In this document: piece after piece, positions 2,259-34,196 of the stretch
How positions within the stretch are numbered: the stretch's first letter is position 1
Layout of the letters: each line of letters begins with the position of its first letter
Virus record (IMG/VR): IMGVR_UViG_3300045988_066560
Coordinates: 1 to 34,468 of that record
Length of the DNA stretch: 34,468 nt
Direction: 5' to 3' (one strand)
Source of the DNA: a virus
Program-made: the position numbers and the translations under genes
Notes under the pieces: model-generated
Database searches by the model: none
Told to the model about the DNA's origin: nothing
Seen by the model: the letters and a program-made list of their open reading frames with translations, nothing else

Positions 2259-3407
2259 TCAACCTCCCACGCCCGGTGTTGTCACCTGTGTAACAGGAAG
2301 AACGTATTCCTCTAATTTTGTCACATCAAATACTACCGCACAGTTATCATCGTCTGCCCTGCCGTTTGCATAACATTTTCCAATCACAAGGTTTGCATCT
2401 TCCATGGCTTTTGTCTGATCGTATTCATCAAATCTCACACCGGAAACTCCCATTGTGTAAACGCCTTTTAATGTAAAGATACCGGTTCCCTTCGGGCAAT
2501 TTGCGTCTACGTGCTTTACAATCGGCATAAAGGATGTATTTCTATATCCTCCTGTAAGGGCTTCCCCGTACATGCAAGGGTCTACAAACTCTGCCTCGTC
2601 TAAAGGATTACAGATAAGATGTAATTCTGTAACTTTTCTCTTTCCGTTATTTGACAGAGTTTTTCTTACTTCCATTAAGCCTTTCGGAGAGAATTTTTTA
2701 ATTGTTGTCAGCTTTGCTTTCGCCTGTGCAGTTCCGGTAGATGTAAAAGTTTCCAATTTCTTTGTAATTCCTACCGGTCCTGTCTTTCCGTCTCCGTTTA
2801 AATATCCATCTACTAATCCGTCCTGCATTGCCTCGGCAAGAATAGCTCTGAAATATTTATCCACAAACGGAAGCGCTAAGTCGCGGATTGCCTTTGGAAT
2901 TACCATAAATACAGTTAATTTATGCTGTTCTAAGTCAATTCCTTTGATGGTAGCAGATAATTCCCCTGTAATTGCAGCGGTTAAATCTGTTCCCCATACA
3001 GCTTTTCCCGTATGCTCTCCTGTAATCCAATGTTTTACATCTGCCGGCGCAAAGTTTACAAGAGTTAAAATGTCACTTGCTGTTTTTACATCTTCCAGCG
3101 TTCTTTCAATAATGGAAGTTGGCAGGATATCAATCTGTTTTGCTGTAATCGCCTGGTATACGCCCTCTTTTACTTTTCCGTAAAATTCATTTTCTTCTTT
3201 GCTCAAGGTATGCAAGCCAAGGGATTTTCTGTAATTTTCATCTGCTGCCGCTTTGGCATTCTGTTCTACCAGCTCTTTAATCAACCCGTCATGTTTTGCA
3301 CTAATAATCATTTCTGCCGCTTCGTAGATAGCAGCACTTTTGTCTTCTGCGCCGTCAAGTAATTCTTTTACTTTCTGCTGTAATTCTTTATTTCCATCAA
3401 TAATCAT
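2259..3407 (-). CDS. Major capsid protein, HK97 fold, with N-terminal coiled-coil delta/scaffold-like region
   Basis: 382 aa. ATGA overlap with the upstream protease gene. Portal-protease-capsid order. Confidence 0.85.
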   Translation of the reverse strand: MIIDGNKELQQKVKELLDGAEDKSAAIYEAAEMIISAKHDGLIKELVEQNAKAAADENYRKSLGLHTLSKEENEFYGKVKEGVYQAITAKQIDILPTSIIERTLEDVKTASDILTLVNFAPADVKHWITGEHTGKAVWGTDLTAAITGELSATIKGIDLEQHKLTVFMVIPKAIRDLALPFVDKYFRAILAEAMQDGLVDGYLNGDGKTGPVGITKKLETFTSTGTAQAKAKLTTIKKFSPKGLMEVRKTLSNNGKRKVTELHLICNPLDEAEFVDPCMYGEALTGGYRNTSFMPIVKHVDANCPKGTGIFTLKGVYTMGVSGVRFDEYDQTKAMEDANLVIGKCYANGRADDDNCAVVFDVTKLEEYVLPVTQVTTPGVGG

Positions 3408-4126
3408 TTTTTACCTCCACTAAAAAAAGCACCCCAGTCGGTGCCTGCTTTTGGTTTTTCTCTTTTTAATAATTCTACAACTTTTTTTGCAACTTCTTCC
3501 GCATCTAATGTTTCCTGCTGCACAGCTACCGGAGTATTTAAAATTTTGTTTCGAATACTCATCTGTGCGGACTGATTTGCCCCATCCTCTTTTTCTTCAT
3601 AAATGCTTGTGGCAAATCCATATTCTACAGCTTTGTCTGCGTCAATCCATGTTTCTTCATCTAGCATCTTTTTTACTTCGTCTTCCGTAATGCTTACACG
3701 GTTCATATAAGCTTTTACAGACGCCTGTGTGATAGTGTCTAAATCATCTGCCTGCTTTCTAAGCTCTGCCGCATTTCCTTGTCCGTAAGTCCATGCGTTA
3801 TGTATCATCAAAAGGGATGCACCATTCATGACTCTTTCATCACCGGCCATAAAAATGACAGATGCTGCGGAACAGGCGAAACCATCACAGTAAGTAGTTA
3901 CTTTTGCTTTGCTGTTCTTTAAAACGTTGTAGATTGCCAAACCTTCTGAAACCGCACCACCACTTGAATTGATGTGTACTTCAATTTCATCTGTATCCAA
4001 TTCAGACAGCTCTTTTACAATTCCGTAAGCATCTTTGTCTTTTTCTCTCCACGGATAACTGGTAATTGTTCCAAAAATGTACAGCTCTGCTTTGTTATCT
4101 TTCTTTTCCAAAGCGTAATACTTCAC
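3404..4126 (-). CDS. Prohead maturation protease, ClpP-like (S14 family)
   Basis: Motifs INSSGGAVSEGLAIYN, CDGFACSAASVIFMAG and LLMIHNAW. The track ORF extends to 4186, but that GTG sits inside the SD AAGGAGGTG. The GTG at 4126 has AAAGGAG 8 nt upstream. Confidence 0.85.
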   Translation of the reverse strand: MKYYALEKKDNKAELYIFGTITSYPWREKDKDAYGIVKELSELDTDEIEVHINSSGGAVSEGLAIYNVLKNSKAKVTTYCDGFACSAASVIFMAGDERVMNGASLLMIHNAWTYGQGNAAELRKQADDLDTITQASVKAYMNRVSITEDEVKKMLDEETWIDADKAVEYGFATSIYEEKEDGANQSAQMSIRNKILNTPVAVQQETLDAEEVAKKVVELLKREKPKAGTDWGAFFSGGKK

Positions 4127-20129: not shown

Positions 20130-20345
20130 CTACTCTGGAATAATAGATGTTTTAATTGCATTACATTCCTTATATATCTGTGGAATTAACATTTCGGTAT
20201 CCATTTCAGCAAGGAAGTTTCCTTCAAAATCCCAGTATTGTATTACCTCACGTACTGGGTCTTTTTCTGTTCCCAGTCCTCTTTTTGCTTTTGTCTCTAT
20301 AACCTGTATAACTTTTGCACTCTTTGTTCCATTAGCTCTATTCAT
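20130..20345 (-). CDS. Hypothetical protein (71 aa)
   Basis: The ATG at 20345 is preceded by GGGGTGAG. ORF in the leftward chain. Confidence 0.5.
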   Translation of the reverse strand: MNRANGTKSAKVIQVIETKAKRGLGTEKDPVREVIQYWDFEGNFLAEMDTEMLIPQIYKECNAIKTSIIPE

Positions 20346-20349
20346 TTTT

Positions 20350-20386
20350 CTCACCCCACTTTCTTTTCCATGAAGTCCCTAATTTT
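20350..20386. repeat. 37-nt direct repeat, copy A (33/37 identical to 21073-21109)
   Basis: ctcaccccactttcttttccatgaagtccctaatttt versus ctcaccctgctttcttttccatggagtccctgatttt. Confidence 0.85.
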
Positions 20387-20388
20387 CC

Positions 20389-20417
20389 TTGTAATTCGCT
20401 ATATTTTTTCCTATACT
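20389..20417 (+). promoter_or_regulatory. Plus-strand promoter for the zinc-ribbon gene
   Basis: -35 TTGTAA (20389-20394), 17-nt spacer, -10 TATACT (20412-20417). Confidence 0.5.
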
Positions 20418-20468
20418 TTACTTACAGGCTCCCGCCAGAGCCGAGTAATTTACGAAAGGATTATTTTT

Positions 20469-20939
20469 ATGTCTTATGGTTATGTCACAATTTGCCTTAA
20501 TGGGCATATCGTAAGTAAGTATAATGCCAATCATCAGAAATATTGTTCTCAATGCGGAGCAGAAACTTACTCTTTCTGTCCTAAATGCCAAACACATATA
20601 CGTGGAATTTTTAGTGCTCCTGGGGTAATACTGATAGGAGAGCAGCCTTATGAACTTCCTCACTATTGTCATGAATGTGGTTCTCCTTATCCTTGGACAC
20701 AGAAAATACTTGATAATTCCATTGAACTTCTAGCCTTAGATGATGATTTAGACGACGAGTCTAAAGAACTAATCAAAAATGCTATTCCGGAATTAATCGT
20801 CGATGTTCCAACTACTCCTATTGCTATTGCAAAATATAGAAAAGGAATATCTGCTTGCGGGCAAATTTTAAAAGACTCCTTACGCCAGCTTCTTATTGAT
20901 ATTGTAAGTGAAACGACTAAAAAGGCTTTATTCCCGTAG
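20469..20939 (+). CDS. Multi-zinc-ribbon protein with acidic helical C-terminal domain (DUF2321-like from memory), moron-like
   Basis: The ATG at 20469 has a GAAAGGA RBS. CLNGH, CSQCG, CPKC and CHECG pairs. Opposite orientation to the flanking genes. Confidence 0.6.
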   Translation: MSYGYVTICLNGHIVSKYNANHQKYCSQCGAETYSFCPKCQTHIRGIFSAPGVILIGEQPYELPHYCHECGSPYPWTQKILDNSIELLALDDDLDDESKELIKNAIPELIVDVPTTPIAIAKYRKGISACGQILKDSLRQLLIDIVSETTKKALFP

Positions 20940-21399: not shown

Positions 21400-21427
21400 A
21401 AAAAATAAGCCGGGATTTCTCCCGGCT
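21400..21427 (-). terminator. Rho-independent terminator of the lysis operon
   Basis: Minus strand AGCCGGGA-GAAA-TCCCGGCT followed by TATTTTTTAT. The stem overlaps the endolysin stop codon. Confidence 0.8.
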
Positions 21428-22262
21428 ATACTAATGCCCCTCTGTCATTTGTTCTTGCCATGCGTCCGTCACTCAAAAATGCGTACAGCTCATTTCCAAT
21501 CCACAGCATTTCATCTCTTGCCATGTATCCGCCGTCTTTTAACCAGTACCAGGCATCTCCCTCTTTGTACCAGTTGTTTTCCAGCATTGCGCCGTCTGGC
21601 TGTAAATAAAACCAATTTCCGTTTACATACGCCCATCCGGTACGCATCGCTCCCCATTTATCCATATAATACCAGTGGTTTTCGATTTTATGCCAGCCCT
21701 CTGTATACATATAGCCACTGCCGTCAAAATAATACCAAATTCCGTTAATCTTTTCCCAGTTATTTGTTGTATAGCTGCCGTCTGCGTGCCTATACCACCA
21801 GCCTGTGCTATCTTGTACCCAACGGTCTGTTTCTCCGTTTACAATAGCCTCAAAGGGAAAATTATCTCCGGGACAATTTGTAGGGTTTACATCTTTATGC
21901 TTCTGTACCTTTGTAATGCCATATTTGCTTTTTAAAGAGGCAATAAGCTCTTTTCCTGCGTTAATCTGTGCCTGTCCCATGCGTTCTGTCATAAATGCCC
22001 CTTCGAAACAGATGCCAATACTGTCGGAATTGCATCCGGTAGCGTGTGCTCCTACTGTATCCTCCGGTCTTCCCCTCTCGATTGTGCCGTCTTTTCTAAC
22101 TAAAAAGTGGTAGCCCATGCCAGCCCATCCACGTTCCTTATGCCAGCGGTGGATATCCTGCGCAGAGCATTTAGACGCATCGGCATTATGTAAGATAATA
22201 CGTGTTGTTTTGCTTCTTTTGCTTAAAGAGCCAAATTTTAAGTTTGTTTCTACAATATTCAT
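21426..22262 (-). CDS. Endolysin: N-acetylmuramoyl-L-alanine amidase (Amidase_2/PGRP) plus C-terminal cell-wall-binding repeats
   Basis: ILHNADASKCSAQDIHRWHKERGWAGMGYHFLV...GAHATGCNSDSIGICFEG, then aromatic repeats GWWYRHADGSY, NGIWYYFDGSGYM, NHWYYMDKWGAM, NGNWFYLQPDGAM, GDAWYWLKDGGYM. Strong RBS. Confidence 0.9.
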   Translation of the reverse strand: MNIVETNLKFGSLSKRSKTTRIILHNADASKCSAQDIHRWHKERGWAGMGYHFLVRKDGTIERGRPEDTVGAHATGCNSDSIGICFEGAFMTERMGQAQINAGKELIASLKSKYGITKVQKHKDVNPTNCPGDNFPFEAIVNGETDRWVQDSTGWWYRHADGSYTTNNWEKINGIWYYFDGSGYMYTEGWHKIENHWYYMDKWGAMRTGWAYVNGNWFYLQPDGAMLENNWYKEGDAWYWLKDGGYMARDEMLWIGNELYAFLSDGRMARTNDRGALV

Positions 22263-22275
22263 AGTTCTTTCCTCC

Positions 22276-22728
22276 TTAATCTACAACTTCCCACTCTTCA
22301 GAAAACAGCTCAATCATAGTTTCTTTCCACGGAACACGTCCAAATCTACTTTCTACATACAGATACGGAGCTGTCATTTTGCTATTTTCGTCTGGAAATT
22401 GTGCACGGATAACCACATCTGGTTTCCAATTTGGTAATCGCATTCCCATCCCACGCTTTACCAGTTTTAAGGCATCCCCAAAACTCATTCTTGCTTTTCC
22501 TCCCAAAATTGGTGTGTTTTCAGCGTTGGCAATCATAAATTCGTTGGATGCTATGTTGTCAAAGGTGTATTCCGGTCTTTGGGTATCTAAAAGGCGCATT
22601 ACATCCCCTTCTTTTGTATGCATAATAATTTCGCCGTTTTCCCACGCCCAAAAACCTGCCCAATTTGGCAGTTTCACTTTATTCCCTGCTTTCATTTCTT
22701 TCAGTGCTTCTCTAAAATTCATTCCCAT
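22276..22728 (-). CDS. Tandem DUF2829 / Tad2-like domain protein (150 aa)
   Basis: Two internal repeats begin MNFREALKEMKAGNKVKLPNW and MSFGDALKLVKRGMGMRLPNW. The second ends PYLYVESRFGRVPWKETMIELFSEEWEVV. The ATG at 22728 has an AAAGGAAAA RBS. Confidence 0.6.
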   Translation of the reverse strand: MGMNFREALKEMKAGNKVKLPNWAGFWAWENGEIIMHTKEGDVMRLLDTQRPEYTFDNIASNEFMIANAENTPILGGKARMSFGDALKLVKRGMGMRLPNWKPDVVIRAQFPDENSKMTAPYLYVESRFGRVPWKETMIELFSEEWEVVD

Positions 22729-22762
22729 ATCGTTTTCCTTTCTGCTGTTGCGCCAGCGCAAT

Positions 22763-22990
22763 TTATTTTTCTTCCACTTCTGGAATTCCGGCTACAGAGT
22801 TCGCTACAGATAAGATACCTGACAGGATAGATGCAGATACTACCACTTTCCAATCCACTGCGCTTAACACTGCTGCTGTTCCTACTGTTGCCACAAAGGT
22901 CTGTGCCATTGTTTTTACAGCCCTAACACCTGCTGCCTTTGCCCATTCTCTTGTGTCTACATTTGTTTTTAATACACAATTTTTAAACAT
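22763..22990 (-). CDS. Holin (LL-H/XhlB-like small holin)
   Basis: 75 aa with two hydrophobic segments and a C-terminal VAGIPEVEEK. Strong RBS. Lies between the XhlA-like gene and the endolysin. Confidence 0.7.
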   Translation of the reverse strand: MFKNCVLKTNVDTREWAKAAGVRAVKTMAQTFVATVGTAAVLSAVDWKVVVSASILSGILSVANSVAGIPEVEEK

Positions 22991-23002: not shown

Positions 23003-23287
23003 CTACTTAAAAATCATTGCTCCGATTGCTCCTGCGGCTGCTCCTAATAATGCAGACACCAGAGTATCCCAGCGTTTCGCTGGTTTTTCTTCCAAACTGG
23101 CTACTTTTGCAGTAAGCTGTACAAGGGTTTTGTTCATAAAGCCGACTTCTTTTGTAAGCCCTACCATCTCCTGTGCCAATTGATGTACTACATTAACTAC
23201 TTCCTCTGCACTATCCATGCGGTGTTTTAAGGAGCCAATTTCTTTTTTTATCTCTGCAATAGCTACTGCTGTTTCCTGTTCTTCCAC
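23003..23287 (-). CDS. XhlA-like lysis accessory protein (coiled coil plus C-terminal TM)
   Basis: 94 aa. GTG start with AAAGGAG. C-terminal RWDTLVSALLGAAAGAIGAMIF. PBSX-like xhlA-holin-lysin order. Confidence 0.55.
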   Translation of the reverse strand: MEEQETAVAIAEIKKEIGSLKHRMDSAEEVVNVVHQLAQEMVGLTKEVGFMNKTLVQLTAKVASLEEKPAKRWDTLVSALLGAAAGAIGAMIFK

Positions 23288-23574: not shown

Positions 23575-23760
23575 TTAAATCAGTTCCTCCTGCGGTGCAT
23601 AGACTTCCTCTGCCAGCAATGTAAGGGTTGCATATTCCTCCTCGGAAATGCGGTTCATTGCAAAATATACGTCCAGCTTTGCAACGGCTTCATCTTTTGT
23701 GTCATAAAATTTCTTTTCGATTAAGTTTGTCATAAGTTTTACGATTACTGTGTTATTCAT
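23575..23760 (-). CDS. XkdX-like small protein downstream of the tail fibre
   Basis: 61 aa. ISEEEYATLT resembles the XkdX-family motif. Position after the fibre gene. Confidence 0.4.
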   Translation of the reverse strand: MNNTVIVKLMTNLIEKKFYDTKDEAVAKLDVYFAMNRISEEEYATLTLLAEEVYAPQEELI

Positions 23761-26311
23761 ATTCTGTTACCTCCATGTTATCTAAAATATTATTTGTATC
23801 TGTTTCTATCATCGCTGCTTGGGTAGAGAGTGGCATTAAGGATAAAAGATTTGCAAGGCTCTGTGTCTGTGCAGAGACAGCTTCCTTTATTTTATTGTCT
23901 GTGTAGTTTTTTGTATCGGCTACATAAGATAATTCCATACCTGCTCCTGCATTATTAGTAACTACGGTAGTTGGGTAGTTCGTATGCAGGGCATTTAAGG
24001 TTTTCTGTGTTTCTTCCGGTAATGGTTCCCATGTTTCTGTTTCTGTCTCATACACCACTTCTACTGGCGTTCCGGCTTCTTTTTGCTGCAAAAGCCATGT
24101 TTTAAATTCTTCTGGCGTTGGCTTGTCTGATATAAAATATTTATTCCTAACCGAAATGTGGTCAGAGTATATTCCAATTTTTGCTGTTTCATTATCCCAT
24201 GCGTTACTTACATTCTTAAAGTGCGTACACAAAGAAGAATTATACTTAAACATGCTGTTTTCAAAAAATGATAAATAACAATGTATTCCTCCTGGATAAA
24301 CAGTATTTTTATATTCAATCCAATCTTTTTCACTTAAATCTACCGCTTTACTTTTTCTTGCAATGCCCCAGATACCTTCTCGCTTTTCCAGCTTGTCCCA
24401 TTTGGTTAAATTCAAATCTAAGGAAATGTCTTGTAAACCATTCCATGGTACAAAGTAATTTTCTACGTCTAATGGCTTGTCACTAACCATTATATCAAAA
24501 CCGGAAAATTCTTTATAAGAGGATGATTCTTTATTATCACCTCGAAAACAAAAACTCATATAGCTTACCTTTGTTAAGTCTACGTTTTCTCCATTATTCG
24601 CCGACGCTCCATCAAAACTAGTTTGTTCAATTTCATAAGCCCGTCCGATTTTTCTCGAATATCCATTACTCCCCATATATTCCATATCTTCATCGTAATA
24701 GGTCACATTAAATAGAACATAGCTTTCGTCATCATATGTTTTGAATTTTCCTTTTATATAAACATTATTTTTCCCACTCCATCTTATTGCTTCACTTGTT
24801 ACACTTTGTTTTCGCTCTATGATGTTTACAGAGCTGAAATTGCTTGTAGTAATCTGGAAACCAATCTTCCCTTTATCTCCAGCATTTATAATTTCTTGTT
24901 GCCAATCAGGGCTTGGGGATGGTTTTCCACCTGTGTAAGGTTCTGGATATGTGGCATTTTCTCCTTCTTCTAGCTGAATATAGTGTAATCCATCCAAAAC
25001 TGCTTGATATAGATTTATAGAATTAGTATAATCAGCATTCCTTACTAGTATATAGATATTCCCAGTTTCGTCAGTCATTATGGTTTTAGGGCCATTTTTA
25101 AATACGCCGTTAATATCAGTTCTTTCTCCGTTTAGATACAAGCTTGCAACGGTAGTTTTAGGCACATCACAAGATAGCGTATAATTTGTGTTTGGTTTTA
25201 ATTTCATATCATACCTAAAAATACCCGTATCGATAGTATGATTAAAAACCACAGAAAACAAATTCTTACCAGTTGTCTGTACCTGCTCTGACTTTCCGAA
25301 AATCCTGAGATTATCCAGCAAATGCCCGGAACTATCCCCCACCGCTATGTGCTCCCCGGTTGCCGTGTTAATAATGGCATCGGCTTTATTCTGGGTAAGG
25401 GATGCGATATCAGCTTTATTTTTCTGTATCTGTTCTCTGTCTGCGATAATTTCCTGTGCAGCCGTCTGTACTGCCTTTACCTGTTTATTTCCTTCCGCTG
25501 TTACAAGTCCTGTCTGCTCTGTTCCTTTTTCGGCAATCTTTGTAAGCTCTGTTGTTGTAGCTTCTTGCACGTTTGTTATCTGTTTCTGTCCTTCTTTGGA
25601 AACTTCTGCTTTAATCACATTTACATCCAGTCCAAACCGGTTTACTTTATCATCCAACTCTTGCTTTGCAAGATTTTTCTGCTCGGTAATATAAGTCGCT
25701 GTCTGGTCTTTCACTTCCTGCACAGATGCAGTTTCCTGCCGTTCTACCGCCTGTACAGCATTATCTTTCGCAGTCGCAACCGCCTGTGTGGCTTCTGTGG
25801 TTTTTTCTTCCACATGGGCATCAAATCCATTTACCTGCGTCCTTACATTGTTCTCCGCCTGTCTAGCGCTTTCTTCTGCTTTTTTTGCCTCTCTAGCACT
25901 TCCGGCAGCACTATCTTTACTGTTCTCTGCCTGTCTAGCACTTTCTTCTGCTTGTTTTTTTAACTGTCTTGCGTTTGTTTCCATTTGTGCCACAGACTGT
26001 TTGTCTTCCGCTACTTTTGCAGCGTCCTGTGCTACTTCTTTTGCCAGTCGGACTACTTTATCGTGTGCATCTGTGTATTCTGGCGTTCTGTCTCCCGGCA
26101 TAGCAAGGCACTGCCAAAGCTCTGTTGTTTTCCCTGGCTCTGGTGCCGTCCCTGTAATTGTCTGCCCCAGCTCTGCAAGGCACAGATAAGAGCCGCCCTG
26201 CATGGCAACAAGGTCTAAATATTCATATTTGGCTGTACTGTCAAAATTCCCTCTCGGATTAGGTGCAACATTGCCCAAATCGGTTTCTGTATAATGATTT
26301 TCACTCTGCAT
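23753..26311 (-). CDS. Tail fibre / receptor-binding protein (852 aa) with central coiled coil
   Basis: Largest distal tail ORF. Repeated AEESARQAEN heptad-rich segment. Long beta-rich C-terminal region. Confidence 0.7.
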   Translation of the reverse strand: MQSENHYTETDLGNVAPNPRGNFDSTAKYEYLDLVAMQGGSYLCLAELGQTITGTAPEPGKTTELWQCLAMPGDRTPEYTDAHDKVVRLAKEVAQDAAKVAEDKQSVAQMETNARQLKKQAEESARQAENSKDSAAGSAREAKKAEESARQAENNVRTQVNGFDAHVEEKTTEATQAVATAKDNAVQAVERQETASVQEVKDQTATYITEQKNLAKQELDDKVNRFGLDVNVIKAEVSKEGQKQITNVQEATTTELTKIAEKGTEQTGLVTAEGNKQVKAVQTAAQEIIADREQIQKNKADIASLTQNKADAIINTATGEHIAVGDSSGHLLDNLRIFGKSEQVQTTGKNLFSVVFNHTIDTGIFRYDMKLKPNTNYTLSCDVPKTTVASLYLNGERTDINGVFKNGPKTIMTDETGNIYILVRNADYTNSINLYQAVLDGLHYIQLEEGENATYPEPYTGGKPSPSPDWQQEIINAGDKGKIGFQITTSNFSSVNIIERKQSVTSEAIRWSGKNNVYIKGKFKTYDDESYVLFNVTYYDEDMEYMGSNGYSRKIGRAYEIEQTSFDGASANNGENVDLTKVSYMSFCFRGDNKESSSYKEFSGFDIMVSDKPLDVENYFVPWNGLQDISLDLNLTKWDKLEKREGIWGIARKSKAVDLSEKDWIEYKNTVYPGGIHCYLSFFENSMFKYNSSLCTHFKNVSNAWDNETAKIGIYSDHISVRNKYFISDKPTPEEFKTWLLQQKEAGTPVEVVYETETETWEPLPEETQKTLNALHTNYPTTVVTNNAGAGMELSYVADTKNYTDNKIKEAVSAQTQSLANLLSLMPLSTQAAMIETDTNNILDNMEVTEYE

Positions 26312-31273: not shown

Positions 31274-31968
31274 TACAAGCACCTCCAATTTGGTTTTACT
31301 TGCAGAATAAAACCGGGAGAAACAGAAATTCTGTTCCTTCCCGGCTTTAAATATAAATCCTCATATTCTCCTGTTATTTTCGTGTTACTCAGAGTGCCAT
31401 CTTCTCTGTATGCAAGCATACGCTCTGTATCTATAATAAGATTTCCGCTTACGTTTGCTTCCATATCCTTCCCGTTTACGTTTATTATGCACAGCCCTTC
31501 TCCCTGTACATAATACACTGGTTTACATAATAAATATGGATTTTGCTCCGCTTCTTCACTCTTCATTTTCACTTTTCCATTTCTTAGGTAAGTGTATGGC
31601 TCGCACGTAAAGCTTACAGTTATATTTCCTATTCTCCTTGTAGTATGCTCAATTTCCCCTAGTTCTACTTTTTTCACTTTATAAAAAAATGCTGCATCAT
31701 CCTCAAATATCAGTTCTCTGTTCATGCTCTCTAGCAGCCAGTTCTTTATTTGCCTCACCCTGTCATGCCACTTTATATCTTTAATAATAAAATTTAATTC
31801 TAATGGAACAGCTATATCTTCATATCCATTTTCTTCTAGGTATTTCCCATCTTTTCCAGATACTTCTACCTCACTATATCGTTTCTGAGGTACTGGGATA
31901 CTTGGGAATGTCTTCATATACACACGGAAGTCCGATGCTTTTCTGTTATTGTATTCAAAATCACTCAT
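31273..31968 (-). CDS. Distal tail protein (Dit)
   Basis: 231 aa immediately after the tape measure, with overlapping start. Confidence 0.7.
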   Translation of the reverse strand: MSDFEYNNRKASDFRVYMKTFPSIPVPQKRYSEVEVSGKDGKYLEENGYEDIAVPLELNFIIKDIKWHDRVRQIKNWLLESMNRELIFEDDAAFFYKVKKVELGEIEHTTRRIGNITVSFTCEPYTYLRNGKVKMKSEEAEQNPYLLCKPVYYVQGEGLCIINVNGKDMEANVSGNLIIDTERMLAYREDGTLSNTKITGEYEDLYLKPGRNRISVSPGFILQVKPNWRCL

Positions 31969-34196
31969 GTTAATCCCATTGCCCTCATTCTTTCTTTTTG
32001 CCCATTGCCGATTATTTTTGTCACTTCTCCGGCCAGCACTTTTGTCAATTTTCCATCTCCGATATACACATTTACATCTGGTGATATATTTAATGTTTTT
32101 AAAGCTTCTATAAATGCAGTTACCAGACTTTCATTATTTATCTTGTTTTCTTCCCTGATGTATTCTCTTAGCAGCTTAATCGGAAGTACCGCCTCCGGTC
32201 CTGCTTCGCCGCCGCCCATAAGTTCACCGCCATTTTGTCCGAATAAAGTAGGCTTATTTAAAATGCCACCCTTTGCGTACCATTTCACAGACAGCTTTGG
32301 AACCCTTGGGGGAACTAAGCTAAAATCTCCCGAAATTTTTAAATGTGGAAGCTTGATATCCAGCCATTTAAAAGAGAAAAAATCTCCTATTTTCTTACCT
32401 AGGCCTTTAAAGAAATCTACAATATCCTCTCCTGTTTCCTTAAATTTCTTCCCTACATCTTTGAAAAATCCCACAACTTCTCCAAATATTTTATTAACTC
32501 CGTCACGGAACCATTCGCATTTATTATAGGCGGCAATAAATGCACCGATTAAAATTCCAATAACAGTAATTACGGTGCCAATAGGATTTGCTGCCATGAT
32601 ACCCCACAGTGCTTTTGCTCCATCTCCAACAGTCCCGAATATGTCTACTACCTTAGGACCGCCTTTTACAAGCAATCCAATTAGGCTTTCCGAACCACCT
32701 ATAATTTTACTTATTCCACCAAAAACACTTCCAAACACTACCAGTAACGGTCCGATAGCAGCAATTACCAATCCGATTGTAACAATGGTTCTCTGTTGGT
32801 TTTCATCCAAGCTTCGAAACCATTCAGAAAATTCTTTTACCTTTCCGGCCACTTCTTGTAAGATAGGCGCCAATGTTTCTATCAGCACTCCTCCTAACTC
32901 TGCACCGGCAAGCTTCAGTTCATTTACAGTCGTTTTCCACTGGTCCCACGGGTCCTGTTGTTCTTCGAAGGTCTGTGAAACAATACCCGAACTATCTTGA
33001 ATTAACTGCAAAAAGTCCTGATACTCAAATCTTCCGCCTTTTATTGCATCAGCTAAATCAGGTCCTGCTTTTTGACCGAATACTTCTATTGCCATAGAAG
33101 TTGCCGTAGCAATATCCGGTGCACTTTCAATCGCTTTTAAAGTTTTCTTGAATTCTTCTGTGGCATTTTTCCCTTCCTTGCCCCATGTTCCGATTGCTTT
33201 TTTCATTCCTGAGAAAGCAATTTCCGTATTTACACCTGCTTTTTCCCAACCTGCAAAAATTGCAATGCTTTCATCTGTGGTAAGTCCTAACGCCCTCATT
33301 GGTGCGCCATATTTTGCAAGGTTTTCAGTAAGTTTCTCTATTTCAACTCCTGATGCTTGTCCTGCAATGGTTAACTTGTCAAGCAGTTCTCCTGTTTGCT
33401 CTGTTGGTATTCCTGCATCGCCCATAGCTCTGGATACCAGCCTTATGGAATTATTAACATCAGTGCCGTTTATTTCTGCAAATTGCAAAAATTTCTTTGT
33501 GAGGTCTTCAAGTCCATCGCCTGTGCTGCCAAATCTTGTGTTGATTTCTCCTACTGCCGTTCCTACATCCTGCATCTCAACCGGCATACTCCCGAACACT
33601 CTGTCCGCAACGTCATTAAGACCTTGTAATGTGTCTCCCGTTGCTCCGGTTTTTGCGATAATCGTATCATATCCTTCATCCAGTTCCATGGCCGCTTTTA
33701 CTCCTGCTACCCCTATTCCAACAATCGGAGTTGTGACACCTACGGTCATTTTCTTTCCAGCATCTGTCATTTTAGAACCTAATTTTTCAACTTTCCCGGC
33801 AAATTCTTCTATTTGTGCAGCTCCGGATTTTAATTTATCACTTACTTCTTCCAATCCCCTCTTATAATTGTTCAGGGATGTTTCTGCGGTATTTAATTCA
33901 GCACGCTTTTTCTGTATTGCTGCTTCATCTCTTTTTTCCGCATTTTCCAGATTTCCTAATTCGTCTCTCAGGACTCGCACTTTCATACTGTAATCCTGTG
34001 TTTGCTTTTCTAAATAAATCTGGCTTGCCTTTAATTTATCAATCGCTTTTGTACTTTCATCCCAAGTGGATTTTGCAAGTTTAAATTCTGTCCTGTTTTC
34101 TTGAATAGATGCGCTGACAGCTTTTAAACTTTTCCGAAAATCCACAGTTCCGTCCGCTTTAAACACTAGTCCTACTCTCTGTAAACTATCTGCCAC
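31965..34196 (-). CDS. Tape measure protein
   Basis: 743 aa. N-terminal coiled coil and Gly-rich hydrophobic segments (TIGLVIAAIGPLLVVFGSVFGG). Follows the chaperone pair. Confidence 0.9.
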   Translation of the reverse strand: MADSLQRVGLVFKADGTVDFRKSLKAVSASIQENRTEFKLAKSTWDESTKAIDKLKASQIYLEKQTQDYSMKVRVLRDELGNLENAEKRDEAAIQKKRAELNTAETSLNNYKRGLEEVSDKLKSGAAQIEEFAGKVEKLGSKMTDAGKKMTVGVTTPIVGIGVAGVKAAMELDEGYDTIIAKTGATGDTLQGLNDVADRVFGSMPVEMQDVGTAVGEINTRFGSTGDGLEDLTKKFLQFAEINGTDVNNSIRLVSRAMGDAGIPTEQTGELLDKLTIAGQASGVEIEKLTENLAKYGAPMRALGLTTDESIAIFAGWEKAGVNTEIAFSGMKKAIGTWGKEGKNATEEFKKTLKAIESAPDIATATSMAIEVFGQKAGPDLADAIKGGRFEYQDFLQLIQDSSGIVSQTFEEQQDPWDQWKTTVNELKLAGAELGGVLIETLAPILQEVAGKVKEFSEWFRSLDENQQRTIVTIGLVIAAIGPLLVVFGSVFGGISKIIGGSESLIGLLVKGGPKVVDIFGTVGDGAKALWGIMAANPIGTVITVIGILIGAFIAAYNKCEWFRDGVNKIFGEVVGFFKDVGKKFKETGEDIVDFFKGLGKKIGDFFSFKWLDIKLPHLKISGDFSLVPPRVPKLSVKWYAKGGILNKPTLFGQNGGELMGGGEAGPEAVLPIKLLREYIREENKINNESLVTAFIEALKTLNISPDVNVYIGDGKLTKVLAGEVTKIIGNGQKERMRAMGLT

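Follow-up and report, generated by a model that had tools for sequence, protein, structure and literature searches.

A gene encoding two dissimilar Tad2-like domains fused in a single polypeptide was analyzed in the IMG/VR virus record IMGVR_UViG_3300045988_066560, the full 34,468 nucleotides of which are referred to here as the window. The gene lies at 22276..22728 on the minus strand (stop codon included), with its ATG start codon at 22728 and its TAA stop codon at 22276-22278 as read from the sequence, and its description as a fused Tad2-like protein of 150 aa is based on the open reading frame (ORF) and its translation, on PF11195 and phrog_1048, and on an AlphaFold2 model. The interpretation toward which we lean, with guarded confidence, is that the product is a pseudo-heteromeric signal sponge, probably a dimer that imitates the Tad2 tetramer. 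An initial annotation of the same DNA had anticipated part of this picture and is partly supported: its statements on domains and fold hold, whereas those on uniqueness, internal duplication and positional anomaly do not.

The domain content was established from profile searches together with structure prediction. In a Pfam scan, PF11195 (Tad2-like, formerly DUF2829; curated cut-off, 25 bits) was the sole family matched, and the whole protein matched it in two stretches (E 9.5e-16, 58.5 bits), as expected for the two Tad2/DUF2829-type domains that had been proposed for this minus-strand product. When the halves were searched separately, the C-half (residues 81-150) covered the full profile (positions 1-73/73; E 2.8e-11, 44.2 bits), whereas the N-half (residues 1-80) matched profile positions 1-28 only and fell below the cut-off (E 7.8e-4, 20.4 bits). 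Two DUF2829 matches were thus obtained for the whole protein but not for each half alone, and the earlier description of the first copy as degenerate was borne out. Both halves are covered by phrog_1048 (PHROG 1048, function unknown), which matches residues 2-150 with E 5.7e-33.

Because searching PDB chains with the complete sequence turned up nothing better than marginal matches (E 0.17), a comparison of folds was needed. AlphaFold2 modeled the whole protein with a predicted local distance difference test (pLDDT) score of 94.4 and a predicted template modeling (pTM) score of 0.79, and the N-half alone with pLDDT 93.3. In a Foldseek search of the whole model against the PDB, the 12 best matches were all Tad2 chains (target-normalized template modeling (TM) score 0.63-0.81, best ~0.8), comprising SPO1 Tad2 in its apo and gcADPR-bound forms and Myroides ModTad2 in its apo and His-ADPR-bound forms. 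The four best PDB matches of the N-half model alone were likewise all Tad2 (probability 1.00, TM 0.55-0.68). The order of elements in both modeled halves, H-E-E-E-(E)-H-E, is that of the Tad2 fold, i.e., a helix, an antiparallel sheet and a short helix before the last strand. Both halves are therefore predicted to adopt the Tad2 fold, as had been expected of such a model, and it is structure prediction that settles the assignment of the N-half, since Pfam alone leaves it below the cut-off. A search of BFVD returned no two-domain structural match (best query-normalized TM 0.46).

Judged from their sequences, the two domains are old paralogues that were fused rather than copies that arose in place. 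The halves can be aligned with each other over their first 21-23 residues only (BLASTP, 11/21 identical, E 8e-6; profile-profile comparison, probability 96%, E 4e-9), whereas the C-half is 75-80% identical to 70-aa free-standing proteins of Bacillus phages JL, Shanette and CP-51 and a Latilactobacillus phage, and up to ~90% identical to metagenomic viral copies. A recent internal duplication is ruled out by these figures, and the duplication suggested at first is not supported.

The N-domain (residues 3-67; 22528..22722, minus strand) is a divergent Tad2-fold domain that, in complete loci, occurs only in fusions: in 45/45 of them the ORF that contains it is 150 aa or longer, and a second Tad2-like domain follows. 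Statements on partner domains rest on these 45 complete loci and not on the 150 best N-domain representatives, which were sorted by second domain and many of which are truncated or frame-shifted assembly products; short N-only database entries also look truncated or frame-shifted. Across 25-50 diverse sequences, W23, W27 and T55 of the N-domain are invariant, and G25, Y54 and N58 are nearly so. The linker (residues 68-80; 22489..22527, minus strand) carries the conserved motif NTPxLGG, with N71, L75, G76 and G77 nearly invariant, and is modeled as an ordered segment (pLDDT about 93-95). Two kinds of domain follow it, namely the kind found in the window, here termed type A, or the canonical kind (GWNGK ... 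GWLASQ[A/T]DMLAEDW). For example, the proteins P0015 and P0073 share 70/75 identical N-domain residues, yet their C-domains are type A and canonical, respectively. C-domains have thus been exchanged between near-identical N-domains, apparently at NTPxLGG, which makes the linker a probable joint for domain swapping.

Other partners of related domains were encountered as well. P0178 combines an N-domain-type Tad2-like domain with a dUTPase, and P0208 combines one with a MazG pyrophosphohydrolase, a link to nucleotide-handling enzymes; in P0148 and P0216, the N-domain runs on into a DUF4406-like sequence. Genes for DUF6275 and DUF4406 also recur as immediate neighbors of Tad2-like genes (L003, 3213-3476; L132 and L133; several IMG/VR loci) and are possible further accessory or anti-signaling partners. 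In P0124, a YadA-type trimeric autotransporter adhesin of 2916 aa, 11 stretches match residues 13-56 of the N-half (E 1e-25), through either homology or convergence of repeats.

The C-domain (residues 81-150; 22279..22488, minus strand) belongs to the ultra-conserved type A, in which 21/70 columns are invariant in 27 sequences. Copies with 65-84% identity are found in Lachnospiraceae, Oscillospiraceae, Paenibacillus, Leptotrichia, Flavobacterium, Desulfobacterales, a gammaproteobacterium and a Methanosarcinales metagenome-assembled genome (MAG); loci L100-L121 carry these cross-phylum copies. In relatives, type A shares a polypeptide with Acb4 (PF13876) or with RyR domains. Sponge activity has been demonstrated experimentally for Acb4-Tad2 fusions and for RyR Tad (PMC12265669; bioRxiv 10.64898/2026.06.04.730250), and the RyR domain was recently shown to sponge gcADPR/cADPR (bioRxiv 10.64898/2026.06.04.730250). 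The arrangement of these fusions varies: RyR or Acb4 stands N-terminal to type A in P0084, P0111, P0083 and P0102, whereas a RyR domain (PF02026) is placed in the loop after the second strand of type A in P0043, P0045 and P0066. In eight loci (L028, L030, L032, L035, L038, L039, L040 and L044, at about 3001-3485 in each), type A stands alone in a gene whose stop codon overlaps the start codon of a canonical Tad2 gene of 86-91 aa directly behind it, which suggests that hetero-oligomers may also form from separate genes. These gene pairs sit right after portal and minor-head genes.

Database searches show that the fused Tad2-Tad2 architecture is widespread among phages. Dozens of full-length homologues (148-162 aa) were retrieved from 5.8 billion proteins, and when 1.84 billion representatives were searched with the N-half alone, without a profile, 433 clusters (at 50% identity) were obtained with E <= 1e-3, and 133 with E <= 1e-10. 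Fused loci were collected from IMG/VR (45) and from two reference phages. Together with PHROG 1048, these results rule out a unique architecture. What stands of the claim that the architecture is unusual is its relation to published sponges: in the sponge literature examined (PMC12265669), viral sponges are described as short proteins that build symmetric homo-oligomers, and Tad2-Acb4 and Tad2-Sequestin fusions are reported with no mention of a Tad2-Tad2 fusion.

Genomic neighbors were counted for the fused genes in the IMG/VR loci and the two reference phages, with 44 upstream and 41 downstream neighbors scanned. The gene directly upstream encodes minor capsid protein 2 in 14/44 cases, MuF in 3/44 and an XkdF protease in 3/44 (~20/44 head-morphogenesis genes in all), and a holin in 5/44. 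Directly downstream, a scaffold protein was found in 8/41 cases and an endolysin-type gene in 4/41. By these counts, placement in late operons is the norm for the fused family, and the location of the window gene beside lysis genes, at first regarded as unexpected for an anti-defense factor, is not anomalous. The positions of closer relatives are equally varied. Homologues that are 78-83% identical have portal/MuF genes on one side and scaffold/capsid genes on the other, whereas the early accessory region that houses a homologue at 60% identity also contains DNA methylase, DUF551 and Abi_alpha genes and, in one contig, an Acb2/Tad1-hairpin gene; fused homologues also adjoin Sequestin (PF21825) genes. 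Because these positions (lysis cassette, head module and early region) are unrelated, the fused gene behaves, as far as gene order can tell, as a mobile accessory gene and not as a lysis component.

In the window, the gene belongs to a lysis block of four genes located directly downstream of the tail genes, all on the minus strand. The first encodes a 94-aa coiled-coil protein with a C-terminal hydrophobic tail (23003..23287), a holin-like accessory called from its ORF and weak coiled-coil Pfam matches; a gene of the same or similar size lies directly upstream of the holin in contigs L084-L088, which encode P0001, a protein 99% identical to the window product. The second, upstream of the fused gene in the same operon, encodes an r1t-family holin (22763..22990; PF16945, E 6.8e-10). 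The fused gene follows, preceded by a ribosome-binding site, AAAGGAA (core AAAGGA), at 22735..22741, 7 nt before the ATG, and the block is completed by an Amidase_2 endolysin with choline-binding-type repeats (21426..22262; PF01510, E 7.8e-22; PF01473/PF19127). The gap between the holin stop codon and the ATG at 22728 is 34 nt, and that between the stop codon of the fused gene and the endolysin ATG is 13 nt, with the endolysin ribosome-binding site overlapping that stop codon. A strong terminator-like hairpin (8 pairs, 6 GC, T-run) at 21408..21427 marks the end of the operon directly after the endolysin, and no convincing site was found when promoter-like sites were looked for inside the block. 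On account of the tight spacing, the single terminator and the lack of a good internal promoter-like site, co-transcription of the fused gene with the holin and endolysin is likely; the proposed location within a holin-endolysin cassette under one terminator was therefore confirmed. The GC content of the gene (0.406) is close to that of the window (0.392) and thus gives no sign of recent acquisition.

From these data, a mechanism can be outlined for the sponge. The N-domain and the type A domain, joined by the linker, would stand in for two protomers of the Tad2 homotetramer, and a dimer of the fused chain may rebuild a pseudo-tetramer with asymmetric inter-domain pockets; with two unlike domains per chain, a homotetramer made of identical domains is precluded. 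The likely task of such an assembly would be to bind and sequester a nucleotide-derived immune signal, with Thoeris-type ADP-ribose derivatives or a cyclic nucleotide from a signaling defense of the Lachnospiraceae host as candidate ligands. Given the likely co-transcription with holin and endolysin, directly downstream of the tail genes, the protein would be made in quantity when the structural proteins appear. Tail-fiber proteins can trigger type II Thoeris (bioRxiv 10.64898/2026.06.04.730250), which may offer a rationale for late co-expression, and such timing plausibly suits a stoichiometric binder. The sponge interpretation draws support from the fold and profile membership of both halves together with the invariant C-domain tryptophans W101 and W134, from the company that type A keeps with the proven sponge domains Acb4, RyR and canonical Tad2, from the Acb2/Tad1-hairpin and Sequestin genes that adjoin fused homologues, and from the accessory-gene behavior and the lack of a hydrophobic segment.

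The residues at the predicted pocket refine this proposal. SPO1 Tad2 sandwiches its ligand between W25 and W73, which come from two protomers; N26 and D79 make polar contacts, and S76 and T78 also contribute (bioRxiv 10.1101/2023.05.01.538930). At the position of W25, both domains of the window protein have an invariant tryptophan (W101 in the C-domain and W23 in the N-domain), and at that of S76 both have an invariant threonine (T137 and T55). W73 corresponds to the invariant W134 in the C-domain and to P52 in the N-domain; N26 corresponds to K102, which is variable in type A, and to A24; D79 corresponds to the invariant E140 and the nearly invariant N58; and T78 corresponds to I139 in the C-domain. 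The aromatic cage is thus kept in the C-domain only, whereas helix positions are under selection in both domains. The pocket conservation anticipated earlier accordingly holds for W101, W134 and W23 but not for N26, T78 and D79 in the C-domain or W73 in the N-domain, and the full set of gcADPR-binding residues (W25, N26, W73, D79, S76 and T78) is not present in every protomer, the polar set having changed. On sequence grounds, the residues fit a small-molecule pocket of altered specificity rather than the canonical gcADPR signature; since they are altered, a ligand other than that of canonical Tad2 is mildly favored.

Several observations speak against a sponge of this kind. Among them are the replacements of polar pocket residues by K102, I139 and E140 in the C-domain, the lost tryptophan in the N-domain and the sub-threshold Pfam score of the N-half. 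In addition, type A is conserved far more than canonical Tad2 proteins, which the idea of a sponge does not explain, and no other sponge family was found by PHROGs and Pfam among 24 small or unannotated ORFs of the window.

The unusual conservation of type A can also be viewed from another perspective, in which the N-domain and type A form an obligate hetero-type pocket for an immune signal, or for another universal nucleotide metabolite, that has no known viral sponge. We regard this as rather improbable. An example of such a ligand is N7-cADPR of type IV Thoeris, which is not neutralized by Tad1, SPO1 Tad2 or ModTad2 (bioRxiv 10.1101/2024.10.24.620036). If this were the case, type A would be nearly invariant across phyla on account of a ligand that is itself unable to vary, and sponges in head and lysis operons would represent a general strategy of stoichiometric delivery exactly when structural proteins trigger defenses.

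The altered N-domain pocket likewise bears on a variant of the sponge proposal, according to which only one domain type is functional and the N-domain is a degenerate scaffold for oligomerization without ligand contacts, or the whole protein is a decaying remnant. Besides the sub-threshold profile match and the lost W73 equivalent, a parallel in RyR Tad, whose N-terminal domain alone has no detectable activity (bioRxiv 10.64898/2026.06.04.730250), is compatible with an inert N-domain. However, W23, W27 and T55 of the N-domain, which coincide with pocket positions or lie close to them, are invariant in diverse sequences, a conserved linker follows, and the family is large with intact ORFs; these features argue for selection on the N-domain and not for decay, and we consider the variant doubtful.

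The position of the gene in the window invites a different explanation, namely that of a soluble lysis accessory factor tuning lysis timing or endolysin activity, for instance by binding a metabolite (of the cell wall or a nucleotide) or by contacting the endolysin or holin directly. The gene is tightly packed between holin and endolysin under one terminator, and P0001 is always found in the same trio, r1t holin, fused gene and Amidase_2 endolysin, on five contigs with different flanks, so that the trio appears to move as a unit. Fused homologues also follow holins of four different families and precede two Amidase_2, one GH25 and one PG_binding_1 endolysin-type genes, in what looks like repeated placement. 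Nevertheless, only about five of the 44 fused genes lie in lysis cassettes, with the close homologues described above residing in head modules and an early region, and type A also occurs in phages and prophages of Gram-negative bacteria and in an archaeal MAG, where the envelopes differ. The 150-aa protein itself has no hydrophobic segment (maximum 19-residue hydropathy 0.44, compared with 1.85 for the neighboring holin), and it shows no membrane segment, signal sequence, lipobox, wall hydrolase or wall-binding domain; its fold and fusion partners are those of small-molecule sponges. A role in lysis is therefore unlikely. We give very little credence to an RNA-binding or CRISPR-inhibiting protein similar to AcrIIA7, a tetramer of the DUF2829/Tad2 family for which in vitro tracrRNA binding in a positively charged groove was reported (basic groove residues of pdAcrIIA7: K58, K66, K71, K93 and R101; PMC13133391) and whose chain 9kzr is weakly matched by the N-domain profile, because this similarity is limited to the first helix and strand, the 150-aa protein is mildly acidic (pI 5.6; 20 K+R vs 22 D+E), and the anti-Cas9 activity of AcrIIA7/HgmTad2 was not reproduced by another group (bioRxiv 10.1101/2023.11.15.567273).

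The window, at ~34.5 kb, represents a siphovirus-type phage genome, as assigned from its terminase, portal, capsid, tape measure and lysis genes, and nearly all of its genes lie on the minus strand. Followed in the direction of reading, it begins with the tape measure (31965-34196), tail genes, an 852-aa fiber (23753-26311) and an XkdX-like gene, which are followed by the lysis block. A region of small genes comes next, including a DUF2321 gene on the plus strand, and then a rolling-circle Rep-like gene (PF23343; 17641-18450, minus strand), a Dam methylase and YopX. The last part consists of an IS91-type transposase gene on the plus strand, followed by HNH, large terminase, portal and capsid genes. 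The transposase (IS91/Y2-type; PF04986 and PF14319; 8179-9417, plus strand) thus lies between the replication/accessory and HNH/terminase genes on the opposite strand. The DUF2321 zinc-ribbon protein (20238-20939, plus strand; start probably near 20478) is also encoded on the opposite strand, just past the lysis terminator, a typical place for a moron or a gene expressed in lysogeny; in the related contig L084, an AbiH gene takes its place after the same lysis cassette. No integrase was found in the window, whereas contig L087, with the same lysis trio, has one directly after the endolysin. At the nucleotide level, the lysis region had no match among GenBank phages, so there is no close isolate among them. 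The closest genomes are from Lachnospiraceae (an uncultured MAG, 80%; Faecalicatena contorta, 60%), and isolate-phage relatives come from Ruminococcus gnavus and Dorea; the host, a gut bacterium, is placed in Lachnospiraceae on this basis.

A widespread family of covalently joined, unlike Tad2 paralogues would add an asymmetric, hetero-type design to the symmetric homo-oligomers described for viral sponges. In such a design, either wall of a pocket can change without the other, which brings new ligands within reach. The gene counts also correct a common expectation, as these genes lie mostly in late structural and lysis operons and not in early anti-defense islands, so that they will escape any search limited to early regions. 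Tad2 biology as currently understood stays the same in its essentials unless a new ligand is found, and the main value of the family is as a well-defined target for finding new sponge specificity. In particular, type A offers a cheap and well-defined target for ligand fishing, being 70 aa long, nearly invariant across phyla and fused to Acb4 or RyR in relatives.

Among known systems, the closest in architecture are gp19 of Ruminococcus phage phiRg507T2_3 and WAX12350.1 of Dorea phage DO134P1 (annotated hypothetical), which have the same fused architecture and N-domain type, are 45-51% identical to the window protein and, as in the window, come from phages of Lachnospiraceae hosts. Like the window gene, that of gp19 is flanked by a holin and an amidase endolysin, whereas the Dorea phage copy follows portal and MuF genes; unlike the window protein, both have a canonical C-domain (GWNGK ... 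GWLASQADMLAEDW) and not type A. Type A proteins of 70 aa that stand alone are found in Bacillus phages JL, Shanette and CP-51, Latilactobacillus phage TMW 1.1381 P1 and Enterococcus phage 9183. From end to end they are 56-80% identical to residues 81-150 (63% in the case of Enterococcus phage 9183), but they are single-domain proteins, and several prophage-like loci have a separate canonical Tad2 gene next to them.

SPO1 Tad2 (gp34.65; PDB 8SME/8SMF/8SMG/8WJE) has the same fold as each half of the window protein (Foldseek probability 1.00; target-normalized TM 0.64-0.81 for the whole model and 0.56-0.68 for the N-half) and shares with it the N-terminal helix motif MSFGEAL..K.G, and both of its ligand-stacking tryptophans are kept in the C-domain. 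However, it is an 89-aa single-domain protein that forms a homotetramer with two symmetric gcADPR pockets, whereas the window protein fuses two unlike domains; identity is ~20%, the C-domain has K, I and E for N26, T78 and D79, and the N-domain lacks W73. HgmTad2/AcrIIA7 and SptTad2 (PDB 8KBI-8KBM, 8WJD and 9KZR) share the DUF2829 core, with SptTad2 being the best sequence-profile match of type A, and the insertion after the second strand in P0043, P0045 and P0066 is roughly at the HgmTad2 insertion site. By contrast, the window protein reproduces just part of their polar gcADPR set (W21/N22 and S90/T92/D93), and since it has no long insertion, a cyclic-dinucleotide pocket of the HgmTad2 type is not expected. 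The 158-aa "AcrIIA7" of PDB 9kzr was considered as a possible tandem but consists of a 48-residue head domain and one DUF2829 core (PMC13133391).

The published fusions Acb4-Tad2 (Pasteurella phage Pm86), Tad2-Sequestin and RyR Tad likewise combine two sponge modules in one polypeptide (PMC12265669; bioRxiv 10.64898/2026.06.04.730250). A Tad2-like N-terminal domain in RyR Tad (Pectobacterium phage CB1 gp68) was considered and dropped, as Pfam sees a RyR domain only. With two recognizable sponge domains in one phage-encoded polypeptide, the window protein belongs with these fused multi-sponges, but both of its domains are from one family. In the published cases, the modules have unrelated folds, each thought to form its own homo-oligomer, whereas the window protein joins paralogous domains of one fold, which should give rise to a hetero-type assembly within one oligomer.

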